Sequence record: PQ429079.1
Origin: Escherichia phage vB_VIPECOTPH05A
Direction: 5' to 3' (one strand)
Length of the DNA: 45,476 nt
The position numbers and the translations under genes were made by a program. Shown here one piece after another: positions 18,981 to 42,699 of the stretch. Numbering within the stretch: the stretch's first letter is position 1; each line of letters begins with the position of its first letter. Under the pieces are notes generated by a model that made no database searches, was not told the DNA's origin, and was given only the letters and a program-made list of their open reading frames with translations.

Positions 18981-19175
18981 ATGAAACACGAATATGACCG
19001 CAAGCCAGCACGTGACATCGTACCTGGCGACATGATTTTCAACGTTAAGACCCGCCAGCCTGTTGCCGTTGATACTGTGTTCGTCGAGTCAAACGGTAAA
19101 CTGGTTATCGAAGATGTAACAGGCAACGTTACTGCGTTCGGGCGTAAAGAGCTGGTACTCTACGTTAAGGATTGA
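18981..19175 (+). CDS. hypothetical protein
   Basis: 64-aa ORF with RBS AAGGAATTGAG. Confidence 0.45.
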   Translation: MKHEYDRKPARDIVPGDMIFNVKTRQPVAVDTVFVESNGKLVIEDVTGNVTAFGRKELVLYVKD

Positions 19176-21643
19176 ACATGTCTAAATTTATCCGTCGAGG
19201 GTACCAGAAGCTCATGACTTCGTTCATGCTGCAACACCCGCGCTGTAATATCTGGGCCAGTATGGGTAGCGGCAAGTGCCTGAAACGCGGGACTGAAGTT
19301 ATTATGTTTGACGGTACGACCAAGAAAGTAGAAGACGTCATCGTCGGTGACGTGCTTATGGGGCCGGATTCGACGCCTAGAAATGTACTGTCTCTCGGTA
19401 GAGGCCGGGAGATGATGTACGAGGTTAAACCGCGAAAAGGAGAGTCGTATACGGTCAACGAAAGCCATATATTATCCCTGCGAACTACTACAGGGATCGC
19501 AAAAGGTTCATGGCCAGATAATACCGTTTTCGACATAAGCGTCCGCGACTGGCTTAAGTTGCCGAAATATGTAACCGGACCTAATGGGTATCTTAAGGGT
19601 TGGCGGGTACCTGTCGATTTTACAAGGAAAGAGCAGGACGAGGCTTTATTGCCTCCGTACCTTATGGGGTTATGGCTGGGTGACGGTACTTCGTCGTCGG
19701 GGGCCATAACATCAGGAGAGAACGAAAAGGAAATAAGGGCTTATCTTGAGTCGTACGCAGCACGTAATGGGATGCAAATACGAAAAGAAGGACTTACATG
19801 GAGTATATCTTACGGCAACACAGGTCATAAGAAGCACGGGTTTACGCACGCGCTGAAATCGGCGGGTGTCCTGAACAATAAGCATATACCGCATAGTTAC
19901 AAATGCGGCGACCGGCGACAGCGGTTAGAATTGCTGGCGGGGCTTCTGGATAGTGATGGTTACTGCGATTTGTCTAAAGCGGGTTTTGACTGGATTTCGG
20001 TAAGCGAGCGACTTGCTGATGATTTTTGTTATCTATGCCGTTCTCTTGGTTTTGCTGCTTACAAGAAGAAAACTCGTAAGCGTTGCGCAAACACTGATGT
20101 TTGGGGTGACTACTTCCGTGTGTCGGTATCTGGCGATTTTTCTGAGGTACCTTTCGTGCGAGGACGCCACCAGAATTTACCGAAGCGTAATATTAATAAG
20201 AACGTGCTTAACGTTGGGATAGAATCCATAACCCCGGTCGGCGTAGATGATTATTTTGGCTTCACTATCGACGGTGACAGTAGGTTTTTATTGGGGGACT
20301 TCACTGTCACGCACAATACAAGCTCAACGTTGTGGGTTCTCAACCGCCTGTTCCGTAATGGGCAACTTAATGACGACGACCGCGTGTTAATCCTCGCCCC
20401 GTTGCGTGTTGCGTCTGGCACGTGGCCTGCGGAACAGGCACGTTGGGGTTTCCCGTGCCTGCGTGTCGTAGATGCAACTGGTTCAGAGAAGCGCCGCATC
20501 GCGGCGCTGGAGTCGGACGCTAACGTGGTGTGCACTAACTACGAAGTTATCGAATGGCTTATTGACTACTACGGCAAAGACGACTGGCCTTTTACAGTTA
20601 TTGTCGCCGATGAAAGCACGAAGCTGAAATCGTTTCGCAGCCGTTCAGGTGGTAGCAAGCGTGCAAAGGCGCTCAGCAAAGTGGCGTTTGGTAAGGTTAA
20701 GCGTTTTATCAACCTGACCGGTACGCCGTCACCAAACGGCCTCAAAGACTTGTGGGGGCAGAACTGGTTTATAGACGCAGGCGAGCGACTTGGTTCTTCG
20801 TACACGGCATTCACTGACCGCTGGTTTAACTCGGTGCAGAAAGGGAAGTCCGCGATGGCGCGCGAGTATCACGCACGACCGGGTGCAGATAATGAAATTC
20901 ATCAGAAGATGAAGGATATCAGTCTCACTATCGATGCCGCAGAGTGGTTCGGTTGCGAAGCGCCGATTATCGTTCCTGTTGAAATAGACCTGCCGAAGAA
21001 AGCGCGTCAGGCGTACATCGATATGGAGGAGAAGTTATTTGCGGAACTCGAGAGCGGAGAAGTCGAAGCGGCTAATGCCGCGGCGAAGACGTCGAAGTGT
21101 TTGCAGATTGCATCCGGTGCCGTATATGTGTCAGGGCCAGATGGCGAAGCAACAAAAGACTGGGAGAAAGTGCACGACACGAAACTGGATGCGCTCGAGT
21201 CGATTGTTGAGGAGTTACAGGGTGCGCCGTTACTGGTAGCCTATCAGTTTAAGCACGAACTGGAGCGTATCCTTAAGCGATTCCCGCAAGCGCAGGCGTT
21301 TGCCAAAGGCGCTAAGGGTAATAAGCAGATGGAAGCGTGGAACCGTGGGGGAATCGAAATCTTATGCGTTCACCCCGCGTCAGCGGGCCATGGTTTGAAT
21401 TTACAGGACGGTGGACATCATCTGGTATTCATATCGCAAGGCTGGAACCTTGAGCACTATTTGCAGGTTGTCGAGCGCATAGGCCCCGTACGCCAGAAAC
21501 AGGCGGGGCATGAGCGCCCGGTGTTCCTTTATCACATCGTTGCTAAAGACACGCTGGATGAGGTTGTTGCCGCGCGTACAGACGAGAAGAAATCGGTCCA
21601 GGAAGAGTTGCTTAATTACATGAAGAGACGAGGTAAGAAATGA
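19172..21643 (+). CDS. SNF2-family helicase, intein-containing
   Basis: extein has Walker A GSGK|T (split by intein), DEST box VADESTKL, LTGTPSPNGLKDLW, HPASAGHGLNLQ, Q..G...R. Confidence 0.75.
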   Translation: MNMSKFIRRGYQKLMTSFMLQHPRCNIWASMGSGKCLKRGTEVIMFDGTTKKVEDVIVGDVLMGPDSTPRNVLSLGRGREMMYEVKPRKGESYTVNESHILSLRTTTGIAKGSWPDNTVFDISVRDWLKLPKYVTGPNGYLKGWRVPVDFTRKEQDEALLPPYLMGLWLGDGTSSSGAITSGENEKEIRAYLESYAARNGMQIRKEGLTWSISYGNTGHKKHGFTHALKSAGVLNNKHIPHSYKCGDRRQRLELLAGLLDSDGYCDLSKAGFDWISVSERLADDFCYLCRSLGFAAYKKKTRKRCANTDVWGDYFRVSVSGDFSEVPFVRGRHQNLPKRNINKNVLNVGIESITPVGVDDYFGFTIDGDSRFLLGDFTVTHNTSSTLWVLNRLFRNGQLNDDDRVLILAPLRVASGTWPAEQARWGFPCLRVVDATGSEKRRIAALESDANVVCTNYEVIEWLIDYYGKDDWPFTVIVADESTKLKSFRSRSGGSKRAKALSKVAFGKVKRFINLTGTPSPNGLKDLWGQNWFIDAGERLGSSYTAFTDRWFNSVQKGKSAMAREYHARPGADNEIHQKMKDISLTIDAAEWFGCEAPIIVPVEIDLPKKARQAYIDMEEKLFAELESGEVEAANAAAKTSKCLQIASGAVYVSGPDGEATKDWEKVHDTKLDALESIVEELQGAPLLVAYQFKHELERILKRFPQAQAFAKGAKGNKQMEAWNRGGIEILCVHPASAGHGLNLQDGGHHLVFISQGWNLEHYLQVVERIGPVRQKQAGHERPVFLYHIVAKDTLDEVVAARTDEKKSVQEELLNYMKRRGKK
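19277..20317 (+). mobile_element. intein with LAGLIDADG homing endonuclease domain (347 aa)
   Basis: begins Cys (CLKRGTEVIMFDG) right after GSGK, ends ...THN followed by Thr; two LAGLIDADG-like blocks LMGLWLGDGT and LLAGLLDSDGY. Confidence 0.75.
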
Positions 21644-21777: not shown

Positions 21778-21809
21778 AGAAAAGGCCCCTTTCGGGGCCT
21801 TGTTTATTT
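21776..21809. terminator. bidirectional rho-independent terminator
   Basis: stem AGGCCCC/GGGGCCT flanked by A-run and T-run, at convergence of the replication and structural modules. Confidence 0.7.
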
Positions 21810-24144
21810 AACTGTTTGTCAGGGTAGCCACTAATGTCTCAAGCGCTATAATCCTTTTCTCTAACTGAGCTGCTTTACGTCGCTGTAACGCAGCCTCTAA
21901 TATCAATACCTCATCATAACGAATACCATACCGCTCCCCTGCCGCCGTAGCTTTTGTTAATACTTCCCCAGATTCCTCATCAATAATTTCCGGAGACGCT
22001 TCCCACTTATCGTAGCACAGGAAACCGTACTTAGTCGCGTCCAACCCGTGCCGGGTAAACGCCTCAATTGCTCGTTGGGCTACTACTCCAAAGTGCCACC
22101 TAGCTGCATCCTCCCCCTTCTCTGCAACCCTATCCAGGTACTTATATTGAACTAAATTAACTTCAGCCCAAGCGTCTAACATAGCGTCAGTTAATTCCAG
22201 GGGTAGTGTCTTGGCTCTCTCGTCAGACGTAACCGTAAACGCTGTTTGAGTGAATCCGCCGGACAAAGCGAGACTTGCCGACCCGATAGCGACGGTGTTT
22301 GCACTGGATGGTGTAATAGCCGTCGGTGCTATTTGAATATACGCCAATGTGTCAGAGGCTAAGCGTAAATTACCATTAACCAGAGAAATAGTTCGAGAAG
22401 TACCATTAGATGTGAGTAATTTTATCTGAGAGGTCGTACCTCCACCAATAGCCAAAGATGTAGCCCCATCGGAAATTAGTCTGAATTTATCAGCTGTCAC
22501 AAAACGCAATGCAGAAGTATCTATATACTTAGTGAACCACTCAAACCTACCGGACATGGACCCTATGTATTGTCCTATAGCGGGGGCGTGTACCACGTTA
22601 CTGGTGGTAGTACCATCAATGCTAGAGACCCCGGTTATAGTAGATAGTGAACTAAGAAGACTGTTCTTGGGTCCAGGGTGCTTTACTTCCACAAAGTTAC
22701 GGGTAGTCCCTGTCTCTAGTGTAACAACCCCGGAAGCACTATACATAGGGAAAACCGATGCGTAGTTATTACTAGCTCCGTCTAAAAACCTAATAGAAGT
22801 CGCGGTTTGCGTTTGCCCTAAACTATTAGTTCCGCTGCACCCAACCATTAGAATATTATCAGCGGCATTATAGTTGCCTTGTAATGTAACGCCGTGTGCT
22901 TGCGTGGCCTCGGAGGAGGAGTAATCAGCTACAACATTTGACACCAGATTACCTGAACCCTTGCCGGTGACCACAGCGGCGTACTTAGCGTTATTAGCAA
23001 CAACATTACTGATAATATTACTGCTAGGGGCATTGGTCGTCTCGGTGCCATTATAAACAACGTGCTGACAGCTTTGCCCAATGACGCCACTAACAACATT
23101 ACATTTAGCATCTGTTTTCAACTCAACCGCCCCGAATTGGGGGTAGTTTCGGGCGATAACATCGTTGATTATAGTATTACTTGCGGACTCAAACAGCACG
23201 CACCCCGCTGTTTTATTTGTAGCATACCCGGAGTAGTCGCCCCGTATGCCGCTTACAATGTATCCAGACGGACCCCCATCACTAGGGTATGCTATTAAAC
23301 TAAATCCAGTTCCCTTTGCATTTTTAAAATCAATACCTTTAATAGTAACGTCCTGCCCACCGGCGAAGGAAACCTGCTGACCCTGTGTGAAGTCCGTTGC
23401 CTTATTTCCTACAATACTCAGGGTGCTAAGTAGCCCTCCTGCAGGTTTATCAAAGATTAAGTGGTTTCCAGAATCGTTTGATTGTTTTAAAACCCCACCC
23501 CCTGTTCCGAATAGAGAGCATGTCGGGTGGGAGAGTAGCGACGTACTATACTCCCCTTGCGGTACAAGCACCCCGTTACTAGCTGTAAGCGCTCGGTTAA
23601 GGGCGTTTGTGTAATCAGGGTCAGTACCTAAATAGAAGTCCAGAACGGAAACTACTTCTCTATTTTTATCGTGTTGCGTCCTGCCGACAGCGTCGGTAAA
23701 TGGTTGTCGGACGCCGACCATGGCATCACCTAATGTCGCATTGTCTGTGCTGGATAAATCATTGCGCAAATCCGGGTCAGTACGCGGCTCCCAGTTAGCG
23801 TTACCTACGGGATTAAAACTCGCGGGAACTGTAACTGGTAACGTCCCCGCGTACGAGTACCACGTTTTACTTACAGGGTCGTACACCACTTTGTCGCGGT
23901 CATTAACTGTTAACGTACCGCCAGAGGAGAAATCCCACGATACAGGAGAAAAACCAGCATCACGCAACACGGCGGGTAACGTCTTCTGTGTCTGCCCTGT
24001 AACCTGGTTTGTTGCGTAATCAATATCGGCTCCGCCAGCGACACCGCCGGATTTGCCAGTGATAACCTCGGCTTCGAAAATCTGGTGTTTCTTGGCGGTT
24101 TGTAAATCCGCCAGGCTTAAAACGTCACCGCATCCGCTTGACAT
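21808..24144 (-). CDS. tailspike/tail fiber with beta-helix (depolymerase-like) domain and C-terminal intramolecular chaperone
   Basis: 778 aa; repetitive beta-helix-like middle; C-terminal region around TSDERAKT resembles the auto-cleaving chaperone (S74) domain. Confidence 0.7.
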   Translation of the reverse strand: MSSGCGDVLSLADLQTAKKHQIFEAEVITGKSGGVAGGADIDYATNQVTGQTQKTLPAVLRDAGFSPVSWDFSSGGTLTVNDRDKVVYDPVSKTWYSYAGTLPVTVPASFNPVGNANWEPRTDPDLRNDLSSTDNATLGDAMVGVRQPFTDAVGRTQHDKNREVVSVLDFYLGTDPDYTNALNRALTASNGVLVPQGEYSTSLLSHPTCSLFGTGGGVLKQSNDSGNHLIFDKPAGGLLSTLSIVGNKATDFTQGQQVSFAGGQDVTIKGIDFKNAKGTGFSLIAYPSDGGPSGYIVSGIRGDYSGYATNKTAGCVLFESASNTIINDVIARNYPQFGAVELKTDAKCNVVSGVIGQSCQHVVYNGTETTNAPSSNIISNVVANNAKYAAVVTGKGSGNLVSNVVADYSSSEATQAHGVTLQGNYNAADNILMVGCSGTNSLGQTQTATSIRFLDGASNNYASVFPMYSASGVVTLETGTTRNFVEVKHPGPKNSLLSSLSTITGVSSIDGTTTSNVVHAPAIGQYIGSMSGRFEWFTKYIDTSALRFVTADKFRLISDGATSLAIGGGTTSQIKLLTSNGTSRTISLVNGNLRLASDTLAYIQIAPTAITPSSANTVAIGSASLALSGGFTQTAFTVTSDERAKTLPLELTDAMLDAWAEVNLVQYKYLDRVAEKGEDAARWHFGVVAQRAIEAFTRHGLDATKYGFLCYDKWEASPEIIDEESGEVLTKATAAGERYGIRYDEVLILEAALQRRKAAQLEKRIIALETLVATLTNS

Positions 24145-24156
24145 ATAGAGTCCTCT

Positions 24157-26703
24157 TTAATTAAAACCATTGCTGAATCCGTCGGAGAAACCGCTACCGT
24201 ATGGAGCGACGCCGTCGTATTTATAGAATCCGTCGTCATAGTTGTAGCCTGTAATCTTGACCGTGCGGTCGTCGCCCGGGTCGATTGAAGAAACAACTAT
24301 CTTCTGTGCATTATGCCTTGCTTCGTTGCCGAATGAAAACTCAGTTTTTAGTGCGCTATTCCCCGTGTATATTGCTTCCCCCGGCGCGGAGAGCATAATC
24401 ACTTCGCGGTCGTGGTTTCCTTTGATAACAGAAATACTCTGCACGGAGCCATCGCGCTTCTTGAGGATGATGGAGTGGTCATCGCCGGGGGTAAACGTAA
24501 CCGGCTGTGACAGTGTCAGCGTAAGCCCATTAACGGCAACAACATAGCCATCCTGCGGCGCGATACGCGAGCCTTTAACGACACTGATTACGCCGCCCGG
24601 TGTAGCGAGTGCCCCCTCTTCGGTAGCTTCGAACTCTACGACAACTTTACTTAACGCATTGCGCTGATAGCGACGCCACGCCAGCCAGTACGCCTGCTGA
24701 TAGTTGCGCACGCCTTTCGATTCGTATTCCTCAGTGTTTGCACCGAGTTCTTCCGGGATATAAATAGTTTCCTGTACGTTTGTATCCGGGTCGATGTACG
24801 AGAACGACAGGCTATCGTAGGTAGTAGAATCGTTGAATGTGCGCGTCCATTTCTCTGTACCGGTAGTTTTACTGCGGTGGGTGAACACCATTTCAGGACC
24901 AGCAACCGGACGGTCGAAGCGCAACATAATATCCGCGCCTTTACGGTACGCGGTACAAAACACGGCTTCCGCTATGGTCTGAACAATGTCCTGCATCGTT
25001 GTATCATAATCATCAAACGTGTAGCAGAACTGCCCGGCTAACTCGCTGCCAAAATAGGACTCAATCTCTTCCTGCACAGCAAGTAACTTGTCCATGTTTG
25101 CGGTTGTCAGTTCTAAGTTACCTACCGCCGGGTCGCGGGCCAGTCGAATTAGTGATTGCACCGCCTGCGTATTAGGTGTCATTACCGTATCAAATACCCC
25201 ATTTCCGAGGTATTTGTAACACATCTCAGTCGCAATCATGCGCAGTTCAGGGTTGTCAATACTAGCGGCCCGCGGTGTCTGTTTACGGGCGCAATGTACT
25301 GTTGTCCGGTTGCCGTAGTGCGGGGTTGTGTCCAGAGACTGCCCGTACAGGTTGATGAATGTTATCTCATCGCTTACGGTACCGTCGTAGTCCTTATCAA
25401 AATTCGTTATACGACGCATACGGGCGCGGAAACGCGATGCAGTAGGCAATTGCCCGTAGATAGACGTGCCAACGTAATCCGTGCTATTACCGGTAACGGT
25501 GCCTTGTACGGTGTAGATATCACCAATCGGGTTACGCTGAGAATCTATCATCTGGTACTGGAGTTCTACGGTTACATTGGCTCGGCTATAACCGCCGTCG
25601 TATTTGTAGAGGCCGTTCTGCCCGGCAACGTTAGCAAGCACCCGGTCAACTTCTCCGCGCACCATGTAATACCAGTCGGTCAGGGATACGTCGTAGGTGT
25701 CTCTAGGACCAATGAAAGTATCAGAACGCTCTGTTAAGGTATACGTCTGCCCACTGGTTAACGCGTCCCAATTAGAAGCACCATTCACCGCCAGTCTTAC
25801 TTCGAAGTCATCGACATATAAAACCTCAAACGAGCCGTTAAGATTAGTGACGCCTGCAACGTCAAAGTTGCTCAGCACCGCGACATCACCGACGCTAAGA
25901 AACTCAGAAAAAGCGGAGTTACCCGACGGGTCATAGATGTAGCCGGTGTTTGAAATACGTTTCGCGGTGCCATCGGCGCTTGGGTTAGCCCCGATGTCGT
26001 TTGGCGCTTTCAGTACAATACCGTCAACGTCGTCGTTGGAGTATGTCACATAGAGTTTCTGGTCAATGACGTCCCCGATTTGTAGCTGCGGAGATGTGGT
26101 GTTGTTCGGGGAGGTATATGGCGCATACACGGCAACAGAGGAGCCTGTGATGTCACTTATCAGGGTATCGCCCTCTGTGACCCCATCAGCCTCAATATGT
26201 AGATGCCCTCGCCCGGCGTCATAGTACGAGTATTCTAGTAAATTCCCGATATTGTCGAACGCCTTATACGTCTGCATCAGGTCATTAGGGATTGTCTGCA
26301 CAGTCCCGCAGATGTCATAGGAGCGCTCGTAAGGACGCGGCTTGTTGGAGCGGTCAGTAAGGCTGTTATTAGCGGATTTTGCTTGGTTATTTGTCGCTGT
26401 TACCGCCAGATTCGGTTTCTTAGTTAGTAAAACCGTAGCCGCGACGACGACCAACGCAACAAGCGCACCTACTACAAGTGCACCCCCACCAGCTCCTTCT
26501 ACTATGTGATACACCGCGTCTTCGTCTTTAAGCGCTTCGAAGTCGTCCGTTACGTCTGTATCATCACCAATTTCGCCGAGGTAGACGCGCACCGGCACGC
26601 CGTCAGGAATACGGTTAACGACAAACTCCATCGGCATCCCGACGTGTTTTGTGCGGTCGAAAACACCGTTAGCATTTCGCGTGTAGTGCAGGATTATCGC
26701 CAA
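24157..26703 (-). CDS. tail tip/central fiber protein (lambda J-like)
   Basis: 848-aa protein directly after K/L/M-like genes; N-terminal hydrophobic stretch GAGGGALVVGALVALVVVAATVLL. Confidence 0.6.
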   Translation of the reverse strand: MAIILHYTRNANGVFDRTKHVGMPMEFVVNRIPDGVPVRVYLGEIGDDTDVTDDFEALKDEDAVYHIVEGAGGGALVVGALVALVVVAATVLLTKKPNLAVTATNNQAKSANNSLTDRSNKPRPYERSYDICGTVQTIPNDLMQTYKAFDNIGNLLEYSYYDAGRGHLHIEADGVTEGDTLISDITGSSVAVYAPYTSPNNTTSPQLQIGDVIDQKLYVTYSNDDVDGIVLKAPNDIGANPSADGTAKRISNTGYIYDPSGNSAFSEFLSVGDVAVLSNFDVAGVTNLNGSFEVLYVDDFEVRLAVNGASNWDALTSGQTYTLTERSDTFIGPRDTYDVSLTDWYYMVRGEVDRVLANVAGQNGLYKYDGGYSRANVTVELQYQMIDSQRNPIGDIYTVQGTVTGNSTDYVGTSIYGQLPTASRFRARMRRITNFDKDYDGTVSDEITFINLYGQSLDTTPHYGNRTTVHCARKQTPRAASIDNPELRMIATEMCYKYLGNGVFDTVMTPNTQAVQSLIRLARDPAVGNLELTTANMDKLLAVQEEIESYFGSELAGQFCYTFDDYDTTMQDIVQTIAEAVFCTAYRKGADIMLRFDRPVAGPEMVFTHRSKTTGTEKWTRTFNDSTTYDSLSFSYIDPDTNVQETIYIPEELGANTEEYESKGVRNYQQAYWLAWRRYQRNALSKVVVEFEATEEGALATPGGVISVVKGSRIAPQDGYVVAVNGLTLTLSQPVTFTPGDDHSIILKKRDGSVQSISVIKGNHDREVIMLSAPGEAIYTGNSALKTEFSFGNEARHNAQKIVVSSIDPGDDRTVKITGYNYDDGFYKYDGVAPYGSGFSDGFSNGFN

Positions 26704-41166: not shown

Positions 41167-41623
41167 CTGGTTTAGAGACCTTCGCCGCTTTGCTTACGGC
41201 CTCTGCACCATCGGCATCGGTAACTTTAACGAAGTATTCGCCCGCCGCATTAACCGTCAGAGACAGCGCCTCTTCAGGGGCATTTACCACTTCCTTCCCG
41301 TCTTTGTACCAGGTCAGTACATACGGCGCTTTACCCGCCTTAACTTCGACGGTGATGGTGGCGCTACCGTCGACCAGCTCGGTGTCTTTCGGCTGCACAG
41401 AGAAATACACATCACCAGCGTCCGCCAGATACGGAATCTCATAAAGCATACCCGCCGCGGGTAACGCAATACCGGTTTTATCTGCAAATGGCATATCATC
41501 CACTGGTGTACCGAGTACACTTTCATCTCCAATAAACACCACGTTCTCGCCGGAACCAGACACTCGGGCGTACTGGACTACTCGACGTGACGGTACATCA
41601 GTTACTTTGAAAAAGCCCATCAT
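41162..41623 (-). CDS. Ig-like domain protein (putative structural/decoration)
   Basis: C-terminal PYVLTWYKDGKEVVNAPEEALSLTVNAAGEYFVKVTD resembles an Ig-like domain. Confidence 0.45.
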   Translation of the reverse strand: MMGFFKVTDVPSRRVVQYARVSGSGENVVFIGDESVLGTPVDDMPFADKTGIALPAAGMLYEIPYLADAGDVYFSVQPKDTELVDGSATITVEVKAGKAPYVLTWYKDGKEVVNAPEEALSLTVNAAGEYFVKVTDADGAEAVSKAAKVSKPE

Positions 41624-42699
41624 TATTCCCCTTTCAGATAATCAGCAACACGTTTATCGAGTTCCGCCATCTGCTTAAGCGTGAGCGGATTCCCGAAACC
41701 ATCTACAGATATTACGCGAAACTCTTCCGGCGATATACCGCTGTTACGGAAAATCTTACCGCGGGTCGGCCCGAGTGCTTCGTCCACGAACCACGCCGGT
41801 TGTTGTTCCAGGAACTCGTAGTAAGTGGTGTCTGCGCTTACCTGAGTACCTCCGTCCGCGCCCTTAGCCGCACGTTTTGCACCTTTATCGAGGAAGTCGA
41901 ACTCTGAACTGATTACAGGTGCCGTGGTACTTCGGCACCCAAAATGGGCCGGGGGTATCGGCCCCTTACCGATTTCCCACGTCATTCCGTCTCTGGCCCT
42001 ACAAATCGTACTGGTACGGCTGTCTAGCGTTGACACCCACTCGTACTTCTCGATGATGTCGTCGTTCTGGCGGTACGTCTCGTTACGGGCCTCGTTGGAT
42101 ACATGAGACAGCGCGGTGCGGATTACCGTAGCTGCGTTACGCTCGGAGATGTCCGCCAAACCACCAGCACCAACAACATTCTTAACAATCTGCCGTGTTG
42201 TCTTACCCTGAACAAAGCCCATCTTAACGCCGGTTACGAGACGTGCTACTTCGGTTTCGCCCCATCCCGACATCAGCTTAGTGAAATCAACAGGCTTGTC
42301 GCTTAATGATAAGGGTTGAAACTCGGCAGCGGACCACACCTGTTCGGCGGTAGGCGTAACAAATTCCGCATCTACGTTGGTGGTCAGTGTCTTTACATTC
42401 CACTCGGCCTCATACGCCGCCAGTTCCATAAGGTCTTCTGTCAGCTTTGTTTGCCAGTCACCGGTAAGCGCGGTAAGTGCTTCTTCAAGGTCGCGTAACA
42501 GTTTATTCAGTCGCGCGGTGCTTCGCCCGTCGTCGCCGAATAACAGCACCTGCCGTTTTATTTCGTCCCGCATCTCCTTAATGAACGGCGCGAGGTCTTT
42601 CACCTCACCGGATGCAGTGCGTTGCAGCCATATCTGGTGGCTGATTAGAGATGTAAGTAAGCTCATAGATAAACCCTGTGGCGCTAAAGTTAATAGCAT
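41623..42699 (-). CDS. head morphogenesis protein (SPP1 gp7 / Mu F-like)
   Basis: WVSTLDSRTSTICRARDGMTWEIGKGPIPPAHFGCRSTT fits that family; real start may be Met at 42666. Confidence 0.65.
   Translation of the reverse strand: MLLTLAPQGLSMSLLTSLISHQIWLQRTASGEVKDLAPFIKEMRDEIKRQVLLFGDDGRSTARLNKLLRDLEEALTALTGDWQTKLTEDLMELAAYEAEWNVKTLTTNVDAEFVTPTAEQVWSAAEFQPLSLSDKPVDFTKLMSGWGETEVARLVTGVKMGFVQGKTTRQIVKNVVGAGGLADISERNAATVIRTALSHVSNEARNETYRQNDDIIEKYEWVSTLDSRTSTICRARDGMTWEIGKGPIPPAHFGCRSTTAPVISSEFDFLDKGAKRAAKGADGGTQVSADTTYYEFLEQQPAWFVDEALGPTRGKIFRNSGISPEEFRVISVDGFGNPLTLKQMAELDKRVADYLKGE

Follow-up and report, generated by a model that had tools for sequence, protein, structure and literature searches.

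The K5 antigen, a common capsule of extraintestinal pathogenic Escherichia coli, consists of heparosan, [-4)-βGlcA-(1,4)-αGlcNAc-(1-]. Among the K5 lyases are KflA of coliphage K5A, deposited in the Protein Data Bank (PDB) as 2x3h, gp46 of phage K1-5 (AAG59821.1, annotated 'K5 lyase'), and ElmA, which is encoded by a prophage of E. coli K5 (PMC3594737). K5 lyases are one of four phage families bearing an autocleaving chaperone, ElmA being listed as an S74-containing family, and the chain is cut N-terminal to the serine of a Ser-Lys dyad, S911/K916 in endoNF and S587/K592 in MyRF (PMC8326128). A C-terminal self-cleaving chaperone is likewise found in the endosialidase of phage K1F, and a glycan-dependent infection strategy has been adopted within the genus Kagunavirus by K1G, although the catalytic domain of K1G and K1F is a sialidase hydrolase acting on the K1 capsule (polysialic acid) and not a β-helix lyase. 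Here we analyse a stretch of 45,476 nucleotides (hereafter the window) from Escherichia phage vB_VIPECOTPH05A (PQ429079.1), which is an essentially complete siphovirus genome of the Kagunavirus type (Guernseyvirinae), focusing on the gene at positions 21808-24144. This gene very probably encodes a single Kagunavirus-type tailspike that combines a K5-capsule lyase with a self-cleaving S74 chaperone.

By analogy with the homologues, the 82-kDa precursor would trimerise, and its C-terminal S74 chaperone, residues 640-778 of the 778 amino acids (aa), would guide the folding of an intertwined C-terminal stalk. The chaperone would then cut itself off by means of S640 and K645, at T639/S640, leaving a mature spike of about 66 kDa and a 15.7-kDa fragment. 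The N-terminal 131 residues would fix the spike to the tail tip beside a J-like protein, while the β-helix (aa 176-520) would bind the K5 capsule and cleave its heparosan by β-elimination as in KflA, using E341, K343 and Y364. Cleavage of the capsule would open the way for the virion to the outer membrane and the cell surface.

The open reading frame (ORF) lies on the minus strand, from 24144 to 21808, and comprises exactly 778 aa, as in a first-pass annotation of the sequence, which had the ORF right and left the strand unnamed; the computed mass of the precursor is 82.0 kDa. The protein matches the PHROGs profile phrog_14895, 'tail spike protein', at E=1e-231, and its best sequence match in the PDB is 9vvr, an 843-aa tail spike (E=3e-229). 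Residues 176-640 align with 2x3h at E=9e-177; a comparison with K1-5 gp46 over the same residues aligns 462 of the 465 positions, at 60% identity. By part, the identity to gp46 is 47% for aa 176-300, 59% for aa 521-640 and 57% for the chaperone. An apparent identity of about 75% in the alignment lines of the HMMER search against the PDB was set aside, since BLAST and MAFFT give 59-60%. In KflA and gp46, the single-stranded right-handed β-helix lyase, the stalk and the S74 chaperone follow one another as in the window's tailspike, with nearly no insertions or deletions, and the E-x-K, Y and Ser-Lys dyad positions are conserved. Their N-terminus of about 40 aa differs from the anchor and neck of 175 aa seen here; the first 175 residues are unrelated to gp46 in the sequence comparison, and no equivalent of the N-terminal anchor was found in that protein. 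The short N-terminal region of KflA and gp46 presumably docks on a podovirus adapter protein. The first-pass annotation had proposed a depolymerase-like domain, which can now be narrowed down: membership in the KflA/ElmA family of K5 lyases means that a lyase acting by β-elimination is to be expected, and not a hydrolase.

Structure prediction, which the first-pass annotation had suggested as a check, naming the lack of a predicted β-helix as evidence against its reading, agrees with this homology and does yield a β-helix. An AlphaFold2 monomer model was built from a 22-sequence family alignment, which takes in outliers of only 38-44% identity, and reached a mean predicted local distance difference test (pLDDT) score of 65.5. 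It contains regular short strands forming a confident β-helix, with pLDDT 80-97 across approximately aa 165-500. In a Foldseek search against the PDB, 2x3h was the top match (E=1.8e-40, 60% identity, template modelling (TM) score 0.72 on the target); below it come many further β-helix tailspikes and enzymes of the pectate-lyase fold. The statistics of these sequence and structure matches lie well outside anything that chance would give. Thus, of the repetitive β-helix middle region described earlier, the β-helix is borne out by the 2x3h alignment, AlphaFold and Foldseek, but the repetitive character is not, as no tandem repeats were found. The model is of low confidence at the N-terminus and in the neck, and pLDDT falls below 50 for aa 530-648, as would be expected of parts whose folding requires the trimer; in KflA, the segment corresponding to the stalk forms an intertwined trimer. 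Within the neck region, aa 132-187 match the corresponding stretch of the Sf6 and P22-family tailspikes (7sg7, 4urr, 2vbe) at E values of about 5e-9 to 1e-8. Further towards the C-terminus, the model predicts long helices at aa 653-698 and 743-777.

Glu206, Lys208 and Tyr229 are the residues that Thompson et al. in 2010 reportedly proposed as catalytic in KflA. K1-5 gp46 does have E, K and Y at positions 206, 208 and 229, and their counterparts in the window's tailspike are E341, K343 and Y364; long identical blocks around this putative triad are common to the two proteins. Across the 22-sequence alignment, E341 and K343 never vary, and Y364 is present in 21 of the sequences. This conservation bears on the very improbable alternative that the spike is an adhesin, binding K5 or heparosan without cutting it. 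Such a protein has a precedent in the tail fibre of phage ES17, which binds heparan sulfate and resembles K5 lyase structurally, while no depolymerase activity was detected in it (preprint 10.1101/2020.07.20.212829), and the lyase activity of the Kagunavirus spike clade is a predicted one. Against this alternative stand the conserved putative catalytic positions; in addition, ES17 resembles K5 lyase only distantly and in structure (HHpred E=4e-12), much less closely than the spike described here does, and turbid halos, a usual sign of a diffusible depolymerase, surround the plaques of phage vKMB36, which has a 97.7% identical spike. According to the paper on vKMB36, the host range of this phage is very narrow.

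The specificity of the spike is best approached through the host range of a close relative. The tailspike of the Kagunavirus PDP21P8, or PDP21_P8 (OZ035783.1), is 97.6% identical to that of the window, and the isolation host of this phage was the K5-typed strain PDP21 (supplements of preprint 10.1101/2023.11.22.567924). The same supplements hold an interaction matrix of about 400 strains, in which 19 of 403 strains are K5. PDP21_P8 scored above zero on exactly nine of them (ECOR-11, ECOR-49, ECOR-50, ECOR-51, ECOR-64, IAI81, NILS18, NILS27 and PDP21), and all nine are typed K5, spread over the O-types O10, O2, O25, O75, O18 and O17/O77 and the phylogroups A, B2 and D; nine K5 strains out of nine would arise by chance with P=1.3e-13. 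The same K5-restricted pattern is seen in the podoviruses isolated on PDP21, of which the Kayfunavirus PDP21_P1 encodes a lyase of the KflA clade. An O-antigen receptor was rejected on the grounds that the nine susceptible strains span at least six O-types. Of the two receptors that the first-pass annotation had offered, capsule or O-antigen, only the capsule is therefore retained. That annotation regarded the specificity as unreadable from the sequence, but K5 can be inferred from the homology, the conservation of the active-site residues and the restriction to K5 hosts of PDP21_P8 with its 97.6% identical spike, taken together. The target is most likely the heparosan capsule of E. coli K5.

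It is also conceivable, if quite unlikely, that a spike of the same fold and family acts on another acidic polysaccharide, either another group 2 capsule or an O-antigen, the link to K5 being an indirect one. The lyase domain is about 60% identical to the characterised K5 lyases, with the low value noted above for aa 176-300, a few substitutions can shift the specificity of a tailspike, and several K5 strains are not lysed by PDP21_P8. Against this stand the nine-of-nine K5 result across at least six O-types and three phylogroups, which disfavours an O-antigen in particular, and the conservation of the putative catalytic triad together with the long identical blocks surrounding it. PDP21_P8 lyses nine of at least 17 K5 strains identified, the podoviruses isolated on PDP21 reach higher scores on these strains, and the K5 strains AN17 and T147 (ST73, O6:H1) are resistant to all PDP21-derived phages. 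The resistance of these two strains and the partial coverage of K5 by PDP21_P8 indicate that factors beyond the capsule limit infection; K5 thus looks necessary, but not sufficient, for infection by this phage. The related phage fEg-Eco19 is reported to infect two of 137 strains (fEg-Eco19 paper).

At the C-terminus, the Pfam family Peptidase_S74 (PF13884) matches aa 640-701 over its entire profile (positions 1-58 of 58) with a score of 51.7 bits (gathering threshold 22; E=1e-13). The motif TSDERAKT, around which the first-pass annotation had placed a chaperone-like region, starts at residue 639, at the very beginning of this match, and the domain is of the endosialidase type. The residue aligned to S640 is the first one in the structure of a released chaperone of the phi29-type gp12 (3gud, E=4e-25) and the last one in the KflA chain deposited as 2x3h, and the chaperone of endosialidase K1F (3gw6) aligns with aa 608-769 (E=1e-21). 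S640, D641 and K645 are invariant in all 22 family sequences, and the S640/K645 pair has the S-x4-K spacing of the endoNF and MyRF dyads. On this analysis, autocleavage is predicted between T639 and S640, with products of about 66.3 kDa (aa 1-639) and 15.7 kDa (aa 640-778). That the S74 domain instead stays in the mature spike as a chaperone or trimerisation module, with no autoproteolysis, might be suggested by the two predicted C-terminal helices, which could form a stable coiled coil. We regard this as exceedingly improbable in view of the invariant dyad and adjacent aspartate, of the KflA crystal chain and the phi29-type chaperone chain that end and begin, respectively, exactly at the aligned serine, and of the place of K5 lyases among the four protein families with an autocleaving domain (PMC8326128).

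Several points weigh against the assignment of the spike as a self-cleaving K5 lyase. Compared with the KflA clade and with a clade of 820-aa prophage proteins, the lyase domain reaches only 59-63% identity, so that we infer its chemistry and its cleavage products from theirs. The catalytic residue numbers of KflA are those reportedly given, and the E, K and Y found in gp46 support them without proving them. The AlphaFold monomer model leaves aa 530-648 without confident structure. In addition, the host-range data are those of a relative, and approximately 16-32 substitutions separate the window's spike from those nearest to it. PDP21_P8 itself scores low (1-2) on every strain but its isolation host, and at least eight K5 strains escape it (ECOR-55, IAI68, IAI79, IAI80, NILS12, NILS25, AN17 and T147).

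Within the lyase domain, the family falls into three roughly equidistant clades, namely the KflA clade, the prophage clade and the Kagunavirus clade to which the window's tailspike belongs, with identities of 58-63% between them. Within the KflA clade, identities are 92-97%, against only 58-60% to the window's protein, and its members occur on at least five chassis: a 632-aa Vectrevirus form, an 843-aa Kayfunavirus form, a 784-aa Gamaleyavirus form, and forms of 755 and 1012 aa. The PDB entry 9vvr (18 chains) fits, in length and sequence, the Kayfunavirus (T7-like) form of the KflA-clade lyase, and hence the structure of a K5-lyase spike over its full length, chaperone region included, appears to exist. 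The prophage clade consists of an 820-aa tail protein encoded by temperate prophages of E. coli (clusters P0003/P0004), which has a lyase and S74 architecture like that of the window's tailspike and, at 62-63% identity in the lyase domain, is slightly the closest clade; it differs in carrying another N-terminal module and a chaperone that is only 45-47% identical. Homologues were found in 68 of 5426 complete E. coli genomes. In E. coli Ecol_AZ162 (NZ_CP019015.1, L004 8137-10599), such an 820-aa protein, named 'tail fiber domain-containing protein', lies in a prophage and adjoins holin and endolysin genes. The 820-aa protein is probably ElmA, the chromosomal K5 lyase, to judge by its length, since ElmA likewise has 820 aa. 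By sequence, the window's tailspike would be a third lineage of K5 lyases, borne by siphoviruses; its kind is well known, and near-identical genes have already been deposited. We consider it a tentative possibility, rather doubtful at present, that the Kagunavirus spike, about 60% identical to the KflA and the probable ElmA clades, is also a functionally distinct heparosan lyase. If it were, its product size, its processivity or its tolerance of modified, heparan-like chains could differ, and it might serve as a tool for making heparosan oligosaccharides, or for K5 typing or decapsulation from a siphovirus chassis.

Ten Kagunavirus records carry annotated tailspikes that are 96-98% identical to that of the window. 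The tailspikes of fEg-Eco19, fFiEco02, fPoEco01, vKMB36, EF2-1, PDP21P8 and vB_VIPECOMC04 are orthologues with this identity over all 778 aa, encoded at the same locus after the J-like gene and differing from the window's protein by point substitutions only. The spikes of fEg-Eco19 (OL539727.1) and vKMB36 (OR525703.1) are each 97.7% identical to it, and the 18 differences in fEg-Eco19 fall at none of the putative catalytic or dyad residues. In the records of these relatives, the protein is merely named 'tailspike'; the fEg-Eco19 paper leaves the receptor unknown, and the vKMB36 paper describes a depolymerase without similarity to any other depolymerase. Judged by their sequences, both spikes are clearly homologous to K5 lyase. 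Our literature searches found no paper linking Kagunavirus to K5.

The N-terminal part of the spike has a different distribution. The first 354-434 nucleotides (nt) of the gene match more than 200 Kagunavirus and Jerseyvirus records at 81-96% identity, whereas the rest of the gene matches only ten records. At the protein level, the first 131, 138, 170 or 202 residues are 74-92% identical to tailspikes with unrelated central or catalytic domains, many of them from contigs of 43-45 kb, and a weak Pfam Tail_spike_N match lies at aa 77-112, below the cut-off. Residues 1-131 may serve in virion attachment, and the tailspike is of the usual design, a conserved anchor with a swapped enzyme domain.

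The features of the locus are collected in Table 1. The tailspike gene closes a minus-strand operon of structural and tail genes, which contains the terminase, portal, Mu-F-like protein, tail tube, tape measure, J-like protein and tailspike, and which converges on a plus-strand replication module. A Shine-Dalgarno-like AAAGAGGA is read directly in the sequence 7 nt 5' of the tailspike ATG. The upstream J-like ORF, separated from the tailspike by a gap of 12 nt, has a weak Pfam Phage-tail_3 match (E=1.3e-3) that is below the cut-off, and its presence places the tailspike at the canonical locus for a receptor-binding protein. A J-like homologue likewise lies directly upstream of the tailspike in fEg-Eco19, and the Kagunavirus tailspike locus has been described (PMC11990801). 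Just 3' of the tailspike stop, a GC-rich hairpin followed by a T-run was detected by sequence reading and a terminator scan. The hairpin is a perfect palindrome, AAGGCCCC-TTTC-GGGGCCTT, placed where the tailspike and helicase genes converge; judging by consensus, it probably terminates transcription in both directions.

Table 1. Tailspike locus of the window: features, positions and the basis of each assignment
Feature	Position	Strand	Basis
Complete tailspike gene, 778 aa	21808..24144	-	ORF list; PHROG 14895; Kagunavirus tailspike orthologues
Putative N-terminal virion-anchor module, aa 1-131	23752..24144	-	Specific to Kagunavirus/Guernseyvirinae tailspikes
Neck/linker, aa 132-175	23620..23751	-	Sf6/P22-family neck matches
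Right-handed parallel β-helix, predicted lyase domain, aa 176-520	22585..23619	-	2x3h alignment, AlphaFold, Foldseek
Putative catalytic residues E341 / K343 / Y364	23122-23124 / 23116-23118 / 23053-23055	-	Alignment to K1-5 gp46
C-terminal stalk, aa 521-639	22228..22584	-	K1-5 gp46 homology; inside 2x3h alignment
Peptidase_S74 intramolecular chaperone, aa 640-778, 15.7 kDa	21811..22227	-	Pfam PF13884, 3gud, 3gw6 matches
Ser-Lys dyad S640 / K645	22225-22227 / 22210-22212	-	S-x4-K spacing, family alignment
848-aa J-like central tail fibre/tail tip protein, upstream neighbour	24157..26703	-	ORF list
GC-rich palindromic hairpin, T-runs both sides	21782..21801	not assigned	Sequence reading and terminator scan

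Some other genes of the window were also considered. The gene adjoining the tailspike (19172-21643, plus strand, 823 aa) encodes an SNF2-type DNA helicase that bears an intein of 347 aa (19277-20317; aa 36-382, C...HN|T) with Hint and LAGLIDADG homing-endonuclease domains, inserted at the Walker A motif GSGK|T. The spliced helicase of 476 aa is collinear with the intein-less helicase of fEg-Eco19, with 93.7% identity and zero gaps. This intein is a known element, already annotated in SETP3; 176 phage records, most of them from Salmonella phages, contain it with a nucleotide identity of 90-99%. In vKMB36, an intein of about 900 bp has been reported in the Mu-F-like gene; it is absent from the Mu-F-like gene of the window, which encodes a minor head protein of 358 aa (41623-42699, minus strand) without a Hint domain. 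The nearest record to the window is vB_VIPECOMC04, with 93% identity over 85% of the first 25 kb.

Conceptually, the tailspike of vB_VIPECOTPH05A offers nothing new, being a further case of the modular exchange of receptor-binding domains among phage chassis. It does correct records and papers in which such proteins appear as a bare 'tailspike', are left without a receptor or are said to resemble no other depolymerase, and it points to a probable capsule target that the authors of the papers on two near-identical phages had missed. Makers of heparosan or heparin precursors could take an interest in a third sequence clade of heparosan lyases, and a siphovirus option would be added to K5-directed phage cocktails. 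For the Kagunavirus phages themselves, a widespread spike clade that most likely targets K5 would make this aspect of their host range predictable from the genome.

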